A DNA stretch of 64,000 nt from an uncultured Thermomicrobia bacterium (GCA_937968015.1 CALBSO010000095.1:10302-74301); one strand, 5' to 3'; shown: positions 35,295 to 56,001, counted from the first letter of the stretch. Translations and numbers: made by a program. Notes: a model not told the origin generated them from the sequence alone.

Positions 35295-35339
35295 TGGAGC
35301 CCTGAATCGGACTTGAACCGATGACCTCATTCTTACCAA
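35295..35339 (-). repeat. attL: displaced copy of the 3' 45 nt of tRNA-Thr(GGU)
   Basis: It is identical to 55957-56001 (TGGAGCCCTGAATCGGACTTGAACCGATGACCTCATTCTTACCAA). Diverged tRNA-like sequence continues to ~35372. Confidence 0.85.
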
Positions 35340-35365
35340 ATATCCCGCTCTAAACGCTGTAGCGG

Positions 35366-35605
35366 TCATGCCAGTTTCCCCTGTACACCAAAGGAATTAT
35401 CGGATTTGCGTTCGAGCGTTTTCTGTTCAGTTATCGTGTCGTAAAATGCCTCTATGTTCTCGATGATTCTGTGCATTCCTACGTATGGAACCTGCCTCCA
35501 TGCTCCACTATCGATCAAGAGATGTTCTGACCCTTCACCGATCGGGGGATTGGTGGTGGGGCAGTTTGGGCTATAGCGCTCCATCAAGACAGAAAAAATC
35601 GTCAA
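35366..35605 (-). CDS. Hypothetical protein (low-GC, island-borne)
   Basis: 79-aa ORF divergent from the WYL gene. No family recognised. Confidence 0.3.
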   Translation of the reverse strand: MTIFSVLMERYSPNCPTTNPPIGEGSEHLLIDSGAWRQVPYVGMHRIIENIEAFYDTITEQKTLERKSDNSFGVQGKLA

Positions 35606-35733
35606 ACTGATCCACTGCTCTCCTTACAACGGGAAGCATTGCCTTCCCCTTGCATCCGGTAAACTACTGGTAATCGGACACCGACCACCATATTTCTGCG
35701 ACACCAAAGGGGCGGGGAAGGAAAAAGAGGACG

Positions 35734-36717
35734 ATGGGAAGGATTGAAGAGACTCGCCGGGTTTCCCGTCTGCTTGATATGGCGTGGCGCATCGCCGCCG
35801 CTCCCCGCCAGTGGACGCGGCGACGACTGGCTGAACAGTACGAGGTGAGCGAGCGCCAGATCACGAATGACCTCACACTGATGCGGCAGGGCCTTCATTG
35901 GCAGGTGACAACTTGCCACACCGGCTATTATTTCGATCCCATCCCCGCCATCCCCGGTGTGCAATTCACCTTACCCGAGGCACTCGCCCTTCTCCTCGCC
36001 ATGCGTGCAAGCATGGCACTCCCCGGCATCGCCTCGGTCGAACTGACGTCAGCAATTCTCCGTCTTGCGTCGCTTGTGCCGCCGCAAATCCAGGCGCTTG
36101 TCACGCTTCCGGACTCGCCACCATCACCACGGGAACACACCCTTCGTACACTGCAACTCGCTCTCGGTCAGCGCCGCCGTGTCCATCTGACCTATCAGGC
36201 CGCGTCGCATGGCGCTGAGATCACCGAGCGTGATTTCGACCCGTACGCGATCTTTCCCTATGGCCGCTCGTGGCATGTGATCGGCTACTGCCATCTGCGT
36301 CGCGCCATCCGCGATTTCAAGGCGGATCGCATCGCCGCCGTCGCCCCACGCACGAGCCTCTACGAGATTCCGTCCGATTTCACGGTCGCCGATTTCCTTA
36401 ATGAAGGGTGGGGGTTGATGCGCGATACCGGTGAACCCGCCGAGGAGGTGGTATTGCGCTTTTCCGCACTCGCCGGCCGCTGGGTGCGGGAGGAGCGCTG
36501 GCACACGACGCAGGAGATCACCGACGAAGCAGACGGCCGGGTGTGCTTCCGCGTCCATGTGCCGGTCACGCCGGAATTCCGCCATTGGGTTTTCCATTAC
36601 GGCAGCGAAGTCGAAGTCCTCGCCCCTCTGTCCCTCCGCGACTGGATGAGGGCAGAGGCTGAAGTCGTCGCAATGCAATATCGGCGTACGATTGGAGGGA
36701 ACAGTAATGGGGTGTAG
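35734..36717 (+). CDS. WYL-domain transcriptional regulator (HTH-WYL-WCX)
   Basis: N-terminal HTH (RRLAEQYEVSERQITNDLTLM). WYL core (YGRSWHVIGYCHLRRAIRDFKADRI). Confidence 0.85.
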   Translation: MGRIEETRRVSRLLDMAWRIAAAPRQWTRRRLAEQYEVSERQITNDLTLMRQGLHWQVTTCHTGYYFDPIPAIPGVQFTLPEALALLLAMRASMALPGIASVELTSAILRLASLVPPQIQALVTLPDSPPSPREHTLRTLQLALGQRRRVHLTYQAASHGAEITERDFDPYAIFPYGRSWHVIGYCHLRRAIRDFKADRIAAVAPRTSLYEIPSDFTVADFLNEGWGLMRDTGEPAEEVVLRFSALAGRWVREERWHTTQEITDEADGRVCFRVHVPVTPEFRHWVFHYGSEVEVLAPLSLRDWMRAEAEVVAMQYRRTIGGNSNGV

Positions 36718-36833
36718 ACGTGCCCAAGCGAAAGACGATTTCGGACTAACGGTGTCGCTCATTGCTCCGTGGTATTATCCTCTCAGACGGGCGGAAAGGG
36801 GTCGCCAGAATCTGCGGCAAAATCCTGTGCGCG

Positions 36834-36910
36834 AACTTCTCTACATTTGTAGAGGTGAACCGTCTCTTGCGATCGCGCGCGTAGCGTCCTCGCGTATGCG
36901 GGGGAACAGG
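36834..36910 (+). CRISPR. Degenerate mini-CRISPR: psiR1 - 20-nt spacer-like segment - psiR2 (CreA/CreR-like)
   Basis: psiR1 (36834-36862) keeps the GGTGAACCG 3' end and has a compensated stem, CTCTAC/GTAGAG in place of CCCCGC/GCGGGG. psiR2 (36883-36910) matches 18/22 of the first 22 repeat positions and retains the hairpin. The spacer-like segment is TCTCTTGCGATCGCGCGCGT. Confidence 0.6.
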
Positions 36911-36960
36911 CAAAGCCGCCTCGTGCCCGAAACCTGGTACGAGGCGGCTTTGCCTGTTTT
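36905..36960 (+). terminator. Strong stem-loop terminator right after psiR2
   Basis: 20-bp perfect stem AACAGGCAAAGCCGCCTCGT/ACGAGGCGGCTTTGCCTGTT, ending in a T-run (TTTTG). Confidence 0.6.
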
Positions 36961-53605: not shown

Positions 53606-53613
53606 CAACGCAC

Positions 53614-53916
53614 CTATCCTTCGAGTGCGCCCTGTGTAGCGCGAATATAGATAACAGCGAGCGTCAAGTAGCGGGCTGCCTCCCACTCGCCGTGGTAGCG
53701 AAGGCGATGTGCTTGGCGGTCGAGTTGGGCGACGATCTCAGCCAGGGGCATAGTCGGTTCGAGTGTAGCGGAGGGATTGAATACCGTTGTCGTGTGTTTC
53801 GGTTCGATGCAGACGAAGCGAAGGAGTTGTATATCTGACCTGGTTAGTGAGGTATAGCCTATCGCCGCCGAACTGCCTGCCGTTGTCCCGGCGGTTTCGG
53901 TATTATCGGGCTGCAT
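53614..53916 (-). CDS. Hypothetical island protein (start uncertain)
   Basis: ORF packed between neighbours, with a lower-GC 5' part. Confidence 0.35.
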   Translation of the reverse strand: MQPDNTETAGTTAGSSAAIGYTSLTRSDIQLLRFVCIEPKHTTTVFNPSATLEPTMPLAEIVAQLDRQAHRLRYHGEWEAARYLTLAVIYIRATQGALEG

Positions 53917-54199
53917 CTTGTTGTCTCTGTGACCGCTCCCGCCGTGCTTTGGCACTGGCAAGGGCGAGGCGAGTGAAATGGGCTCTCCGCGCATATTCGG
54001 CGCGTCGCTGGCGTTCCTCTACGGGGAGCACGCCATTCGGGTCAACCTCTCGCTCAAATTTATTGTGAAATGCCTCGCGGGCCCTTCGGGTTGTCTCCCT
54101 GGAATCGTGCCGCGAGTGCGTGATGAGCGCACCGAGACGACCGCGTAGTGCCATTTCTGCGGGGCTAACTTGGTACGCGACGGTGATGAGGTCGGACAT
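53903..54199 (-). CDS. Hypothetical basic protein
   Basis: Start at MSDLITV follows a GGAGAGGAGG RBS. Arg-rich C-terminus. Confidence 0.45.
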   Translation of the reverse strand: MSDLITVAYQVSPAEMALRGRLGALITHSRHDSRETTRRAREAFHNKFEREVDPNGVLPVEERQRRAEYARRAHFTRLALASAKARRERSQRQQDAAR

Positions 54200-54338
54200 G
54201 AAACACGCCTCCTCTCCGCCGTTCAGTGTCGCTCGCGAGGAGTGACAGGAACTGGGAGTCAAGAGGCGGGTATATACAACGCCATATTCGTCAGAGGCTC
54301 AGGTGAGCCGTACATGCACTGTAGCACATCTACAGCCT

Positions 54339-54932
54339 TTACGCAACGTCTTGCGGTTTGCGCACAATGAATGGGGTGTCGCAATGCGGACAGTGTATTA
54401 CTGATGGGAGGCCGATGATTTTTCCAAGCATCTCATTCGGTTCCTCGCCCTTTTTCTGGAGATCCTCCGGTAGATTGCTGCGGCCTTTCGCCGGGTTGCC
54501 ATTATAGTGATGGCCTCTCACTTGCCGATAGTACCCTGTCGGGGTGACGGTGAATCCCTCGCCTGATAGTGCGATCCATAAGCTGTCTGGGATAGGTGGC
54601 ATTCGGGATATCGCCTCCTCGTATGAGGCCGTCGCGGTGGTACCGTCCTCCCCATACACGTTGCTGAGCCAGGACGTGTACTGCTCCTCGCGCTCGTGAA
54701 GCGTAGCGTATTCATCGGTGCGCGGGACTGGACTAACGCCGGAAAGCCAGAGACGCAAGACCTTAGCAATCATCGGAAAGGTGGGGTCGTCCGCGCGTCG
54801 GAACGCCTCGCGCCAAGCAATCGCGTAGCAGATCGGGCCGAGGCGTGCGTCGCATGTGGAGCACCAAACTTTACTTAGCGAGTCTCTGTTACCGAGACGT
54901 TTGATGATCGCCACTCTCATCGATTCCCCCAT
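54339..54932 (-). CDS. Hypothetical protein with C-terminal CPHC zinc-ribbon-like motif, translationally coupled to int
   Basis: TAATG overlap with the integrase stop. N-terminal CSTC and C-terminal CPHC motifs. Confidence 0.45.
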   Translation of the reverse strand: MGESMRVAIIKRLGNRDSLSKVWCSTCDARLGPICYAIAWREAFRRADDPTFPMIAKVLRLWLSGVSPVPRTDEYATLHEREEQYTSWLSNVYGEDGTTATASYEEAISRMPPIPDSLWIALSGEGFTVTPTGYYRQVRGHHYNGNPAKGRSNLPEDLQKKGEEPNEMLGKIIGLPSVIHCPHCDTPFIVRKPQDVA

Positions 54933-55855
54933 TACAGCCTGTCGCCTGGGCTGAAACGCTGGTGCGCTTCGCGGGCGCGTTCTCCGGCGGCACTCGCGCC
55001 ATACCGTCCGAGCATCGTGCGTGATCGCCAGCCCGCGAGTTGCATCAAATCGCCTTCACGGCCCCCTTGCACGAGCCACTGATGAGCGAAGGTGTGCCGG
55101 AAGAGGTGCGTGTACAGATGGCCGACCCCGGCCTGCTCCGCGCGCTTCTGCACCGTCTGGTAGATGCCGGATGAGGTCATCGGGCCATTGTGTCCGAGCC
55201 AGAGGTTTGGCGATGCGGCGGCGTGATGTTTGGCGCGCTCGCGTAGGTAGCGGTCGAGGTCACGGGTCGTCTTCGTCCCAAAGGCACAGGAACGTTGACG
55301 CTGCCCTTTCCCCATCACAACGGCAATCTTCCGGTCAAGGTCAATATCGGTGACAAGAAGCCCCGCACATTCCCCGCTGCGCATCCCGGTGTCTAGCAGG
55401 AGACGAATCATTGCCATGTCCCGGCGCTGGTCGAAGCCTTTCCCCTCGCACACGTTCAGCAGACGCCGCAACTGATCGTCGGTCAGTACTTCGGGCGGTG
55501 TTTCCGGAATCTGCGGCGGCTTCATGTGCTCCATCGGAGAGCGGGTAATCTCTCCTTCATTCACAAGCCACTTGAAGAACTGCTGCACGCCACGGTAGCG
55601 CGTGTTTGCCGTGCCGGGACTCTTGGTGTTTAGTAGGTCTGTGATGAACGTCTGGACATGCTCACGCGTAATATCCGCAACGTTCGTTGGCATCCCCCGC
55701 GTGCTGAGGAAGATACCAAGCAGTCGCACCGCCTCTATATAGGCGCTGACCGTGTTCGCACTCTTGTTTTCCGCGAGGAGGGAACGGCGGAAGGAGAGGG
55801 CAAGAATAGGATAGTCTCCGGTCTCGCATTGACGGGGAAGCGTGGCGGTCTGCAT
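54932..55855 (-). CDS. int: Tyrosine-type site-specific integrase (XerC/D-like)
   Basis: SAM-like N-domain. Catalytic-domain motifs are [13 protein letters not shown] and LGRY. The start at MQTATL (55855) avoids the tRNA genes covered by the longer ORF. Confidence 0.9.
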
Positions 55856-55956
55856 CGGTGCGTCTCCTTGTGGTTTTGTCCAGTTATCATCTGAACAAGC
55901 GGTGTGCCACAAAGAGTATATCACAGAACGGATGGTTTTGCTTGCTATAGAAAGGG

Positions 55957-56001
55957 TGGAGCCCTGAATCGGACTTGAACCGATGACCTCATTCTTACCA
56001 A
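55957..56001 (-). repeat. attR: 45-bp core inside the intact tRNA-Thr(GGU)
   Basis: Identical to 35295-35339. Confidence 0.85.

Follow-up and report, generated by a model that had tools for sequence, protein, structure and literature searches.

A complete type I-E CRISPR-Cas system and a satellite-like integrase-primase-terminase block between two copies of a tRNA-Thr end in a Thermomicrobia genome

Introduction

Does a complete type I-E CRISPR-Cas system found in an uncultured Thermomicrobia bacterium belong to the chromosomal core, or is it carried by a mobile element that has entered a tRNA gene? The locus lies in a 64,000-nucleotide stretch of DNA, here called the window, in which an earlier note had taken the whole system to be mobile cargo of a satellite or a decayed prophage. 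Here we describe the boundaries, gene content, relatives and composition of this interval and weigh the explanations for its origin.

Results

The interval spans 20.7 kb and is bounded by a direct repeat whose copies, 35295-35339 and 55957-56001, are identical at 45/45 nucleotides. The proximal, attL-like copy is the 3' 45 nt of an intact tRNA-Thr(GGU) gene on the minus strand (55957-56032, anticodon GGT in the DNA; ARAGORN; Rfam 70.3 bits). The distal, attR-like copy, also on the minus strand, is a displaced 3' end of the same tRNA. The likeness between the copies continues 21 nt past the tRNA 3' end (35274-35339 and 55936-56001, 94% over 66 nt). A minus-strand arm (55856-55956), conserved with the related island L120 described below, separates the tRNA from the start codon of a tyrosine integrase, 101 bp away. 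Both the perfect repeat and the integrase about 100 bp from the intact tRNA had been reported in the earlier note and are borne out here. The interval has the layout of a tRNA island, in that a repeat of the tRNA 3' end marks both borders and the integrase adjoins the intact tRNA. No third att-like copy was found in the whole window, the best other score being 28, where random sequence reached at most 26. At the left end, 35340-35733 is lower in GC, holds no convincing gene and is absent from the WYL-cas module of relatives; homology to that module begins at 35627, inside this segment.

Just outside the distal copy, positions 35253-35294 are similar to what follows tRNA-Thr in the relatives L045 and L050, and 35289-35339 is identical to the L050 sequence. 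The Thr-Tyr-Thr tRNA cluster is shared by both relatives (IMPDH 93% and 96%, respectively), neither of which has an integrase or cas gene downstream of it; about 40 nt following their tRNA are homologous to the distal flank of the window. Given this homology, everything between the two copies is inserted relative to that ancestral arrangement. The left-flank genes of L050 and L045 differ from those of the window, so no clean attB was recovered. Synteny of the left-flank genes is absent in every relative compared, and the region downstream of tRNA-Thr is variable in each relative examined. The sequences compared contained no excised circle, no empty site with both flanks and no further copy of the complete island. 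A related island, L120, occupies a 100% identical tRNA-Thr in another metagenome. It shares 75% nucleotide identity with the window over the tRNA cluster, the integrase-proximal arm and the integrase gene, and its products match the integrase (69%), orf119 (64%), orf103 (48%) and the TerS-like protein (51%); L120 contains neither TerL nor virion genes.

Lying between two perfect copies of the tRNA-Thr end and beside an integrase/primase/terminase module, the CRISPR-Cas system is therefore in an integrated mobile island, whose two parts may, but need not, travel together. The data support its placement within an att-bounded insertion at tRNA-Thr(GGU) and not at an ancestral core position.

The CRISPR-Cas half is read on the plus strand and contains the WYL regulator, eight cas genes and 42-spacer array previously noted between the repeats. 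The WYL/WCX transcriptional regulator (35734-36717; Pfam WYL 4e-20, WCX 5e-19) matches the CRISPR-associated WYL family of PADLOC (3e-40) and is 68% identical in amino acid sequence to its counterpart in the relative L141. The type I-E operon (37298-46385) comprises, by Pfam, cas3 (37298-40219), cse1 or cas8e (40219-41901), cse2 (41891-42541), cas7 (42547-43695), cas5 (43692-44438), cas6e (44404-45102), cas1 (45164-46129) and cas2 (46110-46385), all eight genes being recognized with E-values from 1e-17 to 1e-124. Compared with L141, the operon is 80-91% identical at the amino acid level and 82.7% at the nucleotide level. Between the regulator and cas3, direct reading of the sequence reveals a remnant of a second CRISPR array on the plus strand (36854-36957), consisting of a repeat 3' end and a degenerate repeat; a long hairpin comes after it. 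A plus-strand tRNA-like element with anticodon GCC and a 22-nt extra arm follows upstream of cas3 (37124-37215; ARAGORN; Rfam tRNA 38.9 bits, gathering score 29), and no tRNA was found there in the relatives L141-L145.

The array (46402-48992, plus strand) has 43 repeats of 29 nt, ATCGTCCCCGCGCACGCGGGGGTGAACCG, and 42 spacers of 32 nt. Its 61-nt period and the palindromic ...CCCCGCG..CGCGGGG..AACCG core of its repeats are those of a type I-E array; the last repeat bears one mutation. Between cas2 and the array there is no AT-rich leader. The gap from the cas2 stop to the first repeat is only 16 nt, a layout shared by L143, and any leader function must overlap cas2. Compared with the window, the fetched loci and the phage collection, the spacers gave no match.

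The other half is a co-directional minus-strand block (49128-55855) encoding, in order, the integrase, orf197, orf119, orf126, a primase/helicase, orf103, orf165 and TerL. This content and orientation agree with the earlier description, and the length measures 6.7 kb rather than the 6.9 kb given there. The integrase (54932-55855) is recognized by Pfam Phage_integrase (1e-25) together with a SAM-like N domain and by phrog_1 (1e-44), and its translation shows the R/K/H-x-x-R/Y residues. orf197 (54339-54932), orf119 (53903-54262) and orf126 (53614-53994) have no Pfam, PHROG or PADLOC match; orf119 is kept beside the integrase gene in L120 and also in L008 (55%). The 830-residue primase/helicase (51194-53686) combines a DUF3854 primase-like N domain (Pfam 8e-19) with a C-terminal P-loop (GEQGSAKST) helicase-like region and matches PHROG DNA primase and phage primase/helicase entries. 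Its relatives are found in Thermomicrobiales/Chloroflexota and in other phyla. orf103 (50893-51204) is conserved in L120. No ORF between the repeats matched a capsid, portal, tail or lysis family in Pfam or PHROGs, which confirms an absence already noted from the sequence. No repressor, AlpA or Xis was recognizable in the island by Pfam, PHROG or PADLOC, and no frameshifts or gene fragments were seen in it.

The block ends with a full-length, intact TerL (49128-50408; Terminase_6N 4e-29, Terminase 6C 8e-18), which retains all 109 of the 109 columns that are at least 97% conserved in 119 homologs. It is 59% identical to the TerL of Microcystis phage Mae-JY09, 65-73% to many metagenomic TerL proteins, and 59-70% to the TerL of complete phages whose portal gene comes straight after it (L038). 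In L039, a hairpin after TerL ends the operon, and no portal gene follows. Directly upstream of TerL in the island, orf165 (50392-50889, minus strand) encodes a protein with an N-terminal CxxC and a helical body. In every case its homologs (45-59% identity) immediately precede a TerL; they occur in L039, L051-L058, about 35 metagenome loci and Thermus phage Riverbug. orf165 has no Pfam or PHROG match, and profile, structure and fold searches yielded no TerS; in Riverbug, the TerS annotation sits on a different gene from the orf165 homolog. The assignment of orf165 as TerS is thus positional only, and of the original terS-like call it is the conserved place before TerL, not the TerS identity, that stands. 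The TerS-like family also occurs with TerL and a primase-polymerase/helicase on circular contigs of 7-13 kb that have no detected capsid or portal gene.

Composition sets both halves apart from the chromosome. By tetranucleotides, no host chunk of matching size is as far from the flanks as either the cas or the phage-like block. The distance between the two blocks, 0.0128, equals the typical within-genome value (0.0125 +/- 0.0012). GC3 is graded, at 0.78 in the host, 0.75 in cas and 0.70 in the phage-like block. The WYL-cas module recurs in relatives at about 83% nucleotide identity (Cse1 90% at the amino acid level), with other left contexts (AbiE and two others; AbiE/VapC neighbours) and no att-like sequence. 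It has diverged from these relatives about as much as housekeeping DNA has (IMPDH region, 84-88% at the nucleotide level). Cas genes were present in 0 of about 35 TerS-like loci of at least 5 kb each and in 0/37 genome loci with the primase. The CRISPR and phage-like halves may therefore have separate ancestry. Of the proposal that CRISPR-Cas is cargo of a satellite or decayed prophage, the att-bounded, non-core insertion holds, and a common history of the halves is put in doubt by the WYL-cas modules elsewhere, the GC3 values and the lack of cas in related elements.

The island resembles phage-inducible chromosomal islands (PICI) in the order of integrase, small genes, primase-replicase and packaging gene(s), with accessory or defence cargo after terS, in its site-specific integration and in the absence of virion and lysis genes. 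PICI are defined for SatelliteFinder by core genes (de Sousa et al. 2023, PMC10085698), of which the integrase and primase-replicase are both present. orf197, orf119 and orf126 include no homolog of the AlpA, MerR or Stl regulation module by Pfam, PHROG or PADLOC. No capsid-morphogenesis gene was detected in the island by Pfam or PHROGs; this gene is missing from SaPI-type PICI too (PMC10085698). PICI encode no TerL, whereas the island has an intact one. Its 20.7 kb compares with a PICI median of 9.5 kb, 17 of 1435 reaching 20-28 kb (PMC10085698), and its cargo, unlike that of PICI, is a full CRISPR-Cas system. With the regulator and capsid-morphogenesis gene missing and TerL present, the published definition excludes the island from PICI (PMC10085698). 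Capsid-forming PICI (cfPICI) share with it their own TerL and TerS (TerS-like here), an integrase and a replication module; the major capsid, protease, portal and head-tail connector genes that define cfPICI are missing, and this class was rejected as well. A functional prophage was likewise rejected, since virion morphogenesis and lysis genes are absent between the repeats.

The nearest likenesses are the circular contigs L090, L108, L106, L076 and L121 and the island L120. They share the TerS-like family (47-59%), which in the contigs is directly upstream of TerL; the contigs also have a large replicase and no detected capsid or portal. They differ from the island in TerL lineage and replicase and mostly lack an integrase. 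L120 has the integrase, orf119, orf103, the TerS-like gene and the att site in common with the island, without its TerL. Neither the contigs nor L120 contain cas genes, and all are uncharacterised metagenomic sequences and not a described family.

Discussion

We read the 20.7-kb interval, with a probability of about one half, as an integrative island that entered a Thermomicrobiales-like (Chloroflexota) chromosome at the 3' end of tRNA-Thr(GGU), with a satellite-type backbone and CRISPR-Cas as defence cargo. Were the repeat instead a relic of tRNA duplication, with CRISPR-Cas an ordinary chromosomal locus flanked by chance by the tRNA and a fragment of it, the housekeeping-like divergence of Cas would be accounted for, and tRNA fragments are described as common in prokaryotic genomes (PMC9897764). 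We consider this highly improbable: the fragment comprises precisely the 3' portion that integrases typically use for crossover and matches the tRNA end at 100%, the tRNA has an intact integrase next to it, as the identical tRNA of L120 has a 69% homolog, the tRNA clusters of relatives have no cas at the site, and both blocks are compositional outliers. A decayed prophage that lost its portal-to-lysis genes, with CRISPR-Cas taking their place or entering by recombination, and that is now immobile also appears unlikely. The kinship of TerL with that of portal-bearing phages, a gene order (int ... primase ... terS, terL) that many temperate siphoviruses also show in their left half, and the absence of the structural module from exactly past TerL speak for it. 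Against it, the integrase, primase/helicase and TerL are full length, TerL has 0 substitutions at its 109 conserved columns, and the genes show no frameshift or fragmentation. Relatives that carry this TerS-like gene are complete circular 7-13 kb genomes with no virion gene detected, the island L120, which shares the att site, has the TerS-like gene without TerL or virion genes, and TerL in L039 closes its operon with a hairpin. Because TerL is intact, the int/pri/ter block looks satellite-like and is better read as such than as a decayed prophage. Of the two identities first proposed, then, the satellite-like one is sustained by the intact TerL, L120 and the capsid-less contigs, while decayed prophage and PICI membership are not.

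A serious rival, possible though not our preferred account, is tandem accretion followed by deletion. An older island, or a segment of a defence island, with WYL-cas-CRISPR would have entered tRNA-Thr first, and the int/pri/TerS/TerL satellite later, at the regenerated tRNA; deletion would then have removed the middle att and the older integrase, so that the repeats join elements of no common origin, which would be co-mobile, if at all, by accident. The fall in GC3 from host to cas to phage-like block suggests unequal residence times, and the WYL-cas unit stands elsewhere beside AbiE/VapC, differently flanked on its left and lacking an att copy. Cas genes are missing from the related terminase elements and primase loci, the DNA downstream of tRNA-Thr is variable in all relatives examined, and the junction between the TerL end and the degenerate terminal array repeat is abrupt (135 bp, no island genes between). 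Against accretion, neither a trace of the middle att copy nor a second integrase is present; the outer repeat has kept its 45/45 identity, which is less expected of an old island's attR, and the two blocks are compositionally as near as two pieces of one genome.

On the integrative-island reading, a 6.7 kb backbone module (integrase, three small ORFs, primase/helicase, orf103, TerS-like gene and intact TerL) would carry a 13.3 kb defence module (WYL regulator, complete type I-E operon and 42-spacer array). Int would recombine the two 45-bp cores, freeing a circle of about 20.7 kb that the island's primase/helicase could replicate. The TerS-like/TerL terminase would package the circle into the capsids of a helper phage, and Int would re-insert it at tRNA-Thr of a new host; we know of no helper phage for the island. 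The CRISPR-Cas module would guard the host, and hence the island, from other phages and mobile elements.

The expectation that a full adaptive immune system on so small an element would be unusual proves overstated. GI-24 of the Vibrio cholerae classical biotype and VPI-6 are described as excisable islands with complete type I-E and I-F CRISPR-Cas, respectively (McDonald et al. 2019, PMC6360697), and the size argument for rarity falls with the complete I-E system on the 17-kb GI-24 (PMC6360697). In that account, both are small (17-29 kb) integrative elements with a tyrosine integrase and attL/attR, absent from related strains, and carry a complete cas3-cas8e-...-cas1-cas2 operon and array as cargo, as here. 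Their excision as a unit was demonstrated by PCR (PMC6360697); for the present island it is predicted. GI-24 sits between VC0289 and VC0290, not at a tRNA, in a gammaproteobacterial host; the island described here sits at tRNA-Thr in Chloroflexota. The paper's description of GI-24 is confined to a recombination module and cas genes and mentions no primase/terminase module (PMC6360697). Small islands with CRISPR-Cas are thus no novelty. The present cargo most likely came from the resident CRISPR-Cas pool of this bacterial lineage by capture and did not co-evolve with the backbone.

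Results

An insertion at the tRNA-Thr gene

The island is bounded by two copies of a direct repeat (35295-35339 and 55957-56001) that are identical at 45/45 positions and match the 3' part of an intact tRNA-Thr(GGT) gene (55957-56032, minus strand), confirming what an earlier note had read from the sequence. The similarity extends another 21 nt past the tRNA end (66 nt, 94%). A tyrosine integrase gene (int, 54932-55855, minus strand; Pfam Phage_integrase, 1e-25) starts 101 bp from the tRNA, in line with the roughly 100 bp noted before. Local alignment of the 66-nt att sequence and the tRNA against the whole window, with shuffled controls, recovered the two known copies and no others (next-best score 28; shuffled sequences reached 26 at most), so an internal att copy is not preserved. 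No short motif, as a candidate Int arm site, was common to both island arms beyond chance expectation.

The left flank encodes ordinary metabolism (CoA ligase, dehydrogenases, thiolase and a luciferase-like monooxygenase), and the right flank carries tRNA-Leu, tRNA-Val and IMP dehydrogenase (IMPDH). The closest source-named IMPDH homologs are labelled Thermomicrobiales or Thermomicrobia, at no more than 96% identity, and the best relatives of the window primase belong to Thermomicrobiales and Thermalbibacter. One IMPDH relative, L050 (GCA_054639615.1; 96% aa, 88% nt), has the order Thr(TGT)-Tyr-Thr(GGT)-Leu-Val-guaB in common with the window. Downstream of tRNA-Thr(GGT) it bears transposase fragments and transport/metabolic genes, without int or cas; in a second relative, L045 (IMPDH 93%), this position is taken by an ABC permease. 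Window 35253-35294, immediately beyond the distal repeat, aligns with what follows the tRNA in L045, and L050 is identical to the window at 35289-35339; on the integrase-proximal side, homology with L050 ends exactly at 55936. The distal copy therefore lies in the ancestral context downstream of tRNA-Thr, and all sequence between the copies is inserted relative to the ancestral arrangement. That the repeat is a relic of tRNA duplication is very improbable.

In the comparison for an empty tRNA-Thr site, proposed in the same note, L050 and L045 have the tRNA cluster with neither int nor cas, but a clean attB with both flanks was not recovered among the relatives compared, because genes further left differ in every one of them. 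The region downstream of tRNA-Thr behaves, as judged from these sequences, as a variable hotspot. The metagenome contigs L048 and L049, from a relative with 96% IMPDH identity, end within the Thr-Tyr-Thr tRNA cluster, which would fit strain heterogeneity or a repeat, for example an island, at the same site. Downstream of guaB, all that is left of an OppC-like permease in the window (58175-58976) is its C-terminal 220 aa; L045, L048 and L050 have a complete operon of SBP_bac_5 and two permeases at the same place, so the window has undergone a deletion of ∼3 kb.

A test for a compositional break at the repeats had also been proposed. K-mer and GC3 statistics do set the island apart from its flanks, but the GC profile has no sharp step at the repeats. 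Tetranucleotide frequencies place each of the two blocks, cas and phage-like, at a greater distance from the flanks than any equally sized host chunk; their distance from each other (0.0128) equals that of a typical pair of host chunks (0.0125 ± 0.0012). GC3 is graded, from 0.78 ± 0.05 in host genes through 0.75 in cas and WYL to 0.70 in the phage-like block.

The phage-like block and related elements

Co-directional with int are three small ORFs, an 830-aa primase (DUF3854 plus a C-terminal P-loop region), orf103, orf165 and a full-length large terminase, TerL (Terminase_6N + 6C). No ORF between the repeats matched capsid, portal, tail or lysis families, and domain and family matches thus upheld the earlier description of an int-to-terL block free of virion and lysis genes. 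The window TerL shares 59% identity with the TerL of a cultured cyanophage and 65-73% with many TerLs from metagenomes. It retains 109/109 columns conserved at ≥97% among 119 homologs, so it is not decaying. In L038, a complete phage contig, portal, protease and capsid genes directly follow the homologous TerL; in the window, the terminal repeat of the CRISPR array lies 135 bp after TerL.

Homologs of orf165 (45-59% identity) lie directly upstream of TerL in the loci L039 and L040 and in ten IMG/VR contigs, and likewise in Thermus phage Riverbug and in ∼35 metagenome loci that are 5 kb or longer. Orf165 is called TerS-like because of this conserved position, with the caveat that the Riverbug annotation assigns TerS to a gene other than the orf165 homolog. 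Family searches gave orf165 no assignment, and Foldseek searches of PDB and BFVD with its single-sequence AlphaFold model (pLDDT 78) returned designed helical repeats and nothing else. A PDB profile search returned an insignificant small-terminase match (E = 0.52). Scans of viral contigs with a single TerS-like protein, Cas1 and int found nothing.

Five small metagenome contigs with a TerS-like gene are circular by terminal overlap: L090 (6,969 bp), L108 (∼7.7 kb), L106 (a 9.3-kb unit), L076 (10.8 kb) and L121 (13.1 kb). They encode an orf165-family TerS-like protein, TerL (apparently as two ORFs), small regulators and a replicase of primase-polymerase/D5 type or a DUF3987 helicase. Pfam and PHROGs searches detected no capsid or portal in them, and the smaller circles have no space for such genes; they may represent an undescribed satellite or plasmid-like family. 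A related island, L120 (JAABUY010004207.1, 1-15275), carries an integrase 69% identical to that of the window. The gene follows a 100% identical tRNA-Thr(GGT) at ∼100 bp, the tRNA cluster is the same, and the arm between tRNA and int is conserved. It has homologs of orf119 (64%), orf103 (48%) and orf165 (51%); its replicase, an NrS-1-type primase-polymerase, differs from that of the window. TerL, virion genes and a second att copy were not found within the L120 contig. Neither the small ORFs of the window island nor the L120 region after terS contained defence genes by PADLOC.

Taken together, the intact TerL, the orf165-TerL pairing, the circular contigs and L120 lead us to favour a putative helper-dependent satellite-type element over a truncated prophage. 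The core set of phage-inducible chromosomal islands (PICI) consists of int, a regulator, a primase-replicase, a capsid-morphogenesis gene and terS, with no other phage structural genes (PMC10085698). By this set the element is not a PICI: int and the primase-replicase are present, but no regulator or capsid-morphogenesis gene was detected, TerL is present, and orf165 is a candidate for terS by its position. Unlike cfPICI, the window element lacks capsid and portal genes. Whatever the role of CRISPR-Cas, the data point to small elements with a TerS-like protein, TerL and a replicase but no detected capsid gene. Their packaging strategy would be intermediate between that of PICI, with TerS only, and that of cfPICI, with a full capsid set, and it is new to description as far as our searches show; the literature searched gave no report of capsid-less satellites with TerS and TerL, an absence that is no proof.

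The CRISPR-Cas module

On the strand opposite to the phage-like block lie a CRISPR-associated WYL/WCX regulator and the eight type I-E cas genes first read there. The array (46402-48992) has 43 repeats of 29 nt, the last one mutated, and, as noted before, 42 spacers. The spacers had no credible match in the window, in 150 retrieved loci or in 50,697 phage records; neither self-targeting nor any spacer target was identified in this search. Only 16 nt separate the cas2 stop from the first repeat (46385-46402; likewise L143 14238-14255). A conventional I-E leader would not fit into this gap; either leader functions must overlap cas2, or transcription of the array continues from the cas operon. 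Upstream of cas3, a second array remnant (36854-36957, plus strand) comprises a repeat 3' end (GGTGAACCG), ∼20 nt, a degenerate repeat and then a long GC-rich hairpin. Between the WYL gene and cas3 lies a tRNA-like element (37124-37215, plus strand; Rfam tRNA 38.9 bits, gathering score 29), called by ARAGORN as a 93-nt Gly(GCC) whose extra arm is 22 nt long; loci L141-L145, homologous in other respects, lack it.

The closest Cse1 relatives (84-90% aa) sit within WYL-cas3...cas2-array modules that match the window at 82.7% nt from 37352 to the array and 72.6% nt across WYL, with Cas proteins at 80-91% identity. In the closest of these loci, L141-L145, an AbiEi/AbiEii pair precedes WYL, and the left context is either an aldo-keto reductase with an ABC transporter or VapC with an HTH gene. 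The WYL-cas module is 99.8% identical between these two contexts, suggesting that defence genes beside the CRISPR locus turn over at strain level. No att-like sequence or tRNA was found in L141-L145, whose contigs stop at the right within the array. The divergence of cas is similar to the housekeeping divergence between the window and its nearest relatives (IMPDH region, 84-88% nt); the module could accordingly have resided in this lineage for a long time. No cas genes occurred among the TerS-like and primase loci retrieved from genomes, viromes and metagenomes, and the association of cas with the backbone is therefore singular. A primase search of one-genome-per-species contigs yielded 37 loci, none with TerL or cas, and is uninformative for cargo.

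Discussion

We read the locus as a composite integrative island in which a satellite-type backbone carries CRISPR-Cas cargo, with a probability of about one half. The earlier note had taken CRISPR-Cas for the mobile cargo of a satellite or decayed prophage; the att-bounded insertion and the favoured satellite-type backbone agree with it, but the cas genes may have a separate history. A decayed prophage is unlikely in view of the fully conserved TerL columns (109/109), the circular contigs with no detected virion gene and the L120 island at an identical tRNA.

The sequence comparisons speak rather against a shared history of module and backbone. A two-step history is a serious rival to capture of the module by a satellite: an older CRISPR-bearing island or defence segment would have been joined by a later, unrelated satellite integration, with loss of the middle att. 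The other left contexts of WYL-cas modules in relatives, without att, and the lack of cas in terminase/primase loci speak for this tandem accretion, which we consider a substantial possibility. Under both histories, CRISPR-Cas is part of an insertion bounded by att at tRNA-Thr, and its excision together with the backbone would be possible in principle.

More speculatively, and rather less likely than not, the block may belong to an undescribed family of capsid-less satellites with their own complete terminase, one member of which captured a whole type I-E system here. Elements of this kind occur here in two forms, circular genomes of 7-13 kb and islands integrated at tRNA-Thr in Chloroflexota-type metagenomes. 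As satellite cargo, CRISPR-Cas with its spacer memory would be excised, packaged in helper-phage capsids and transduced between cells.

The remark that a full CRISPR-Cas system on so small an element is unusual does not hold in general. PMC6360697 describes complete type I-E and I-F systems on Vibrio GI-24 (17 kb) and VPI-6 (29 kb), integrase-bearing, att-flanked islands with experimentally shown excision. The literature searched gave no report of a phage satellite with CRISPR-Cas, which again proves no absence.

If the modules are simply adjacent, the locus is an ordinary tRNA-linked integration hotspot accumulating defence genes. Its significance would be greater given evidence that the whole unit is excised and packaged, or if capsid-less terminase elements proved to form a satellite family not described before. 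Should the whole interval move as a unit, adaptive immunity, together with the spacers acquired, would be passed on horizontally by a vehicle that depends on phage, in a case from a poorly studied thermophilic phylum, and satellites would join plasmids, ICEs, genomic islands, phages and Tn7-like transposons as carriers of CRISPR-Cas.
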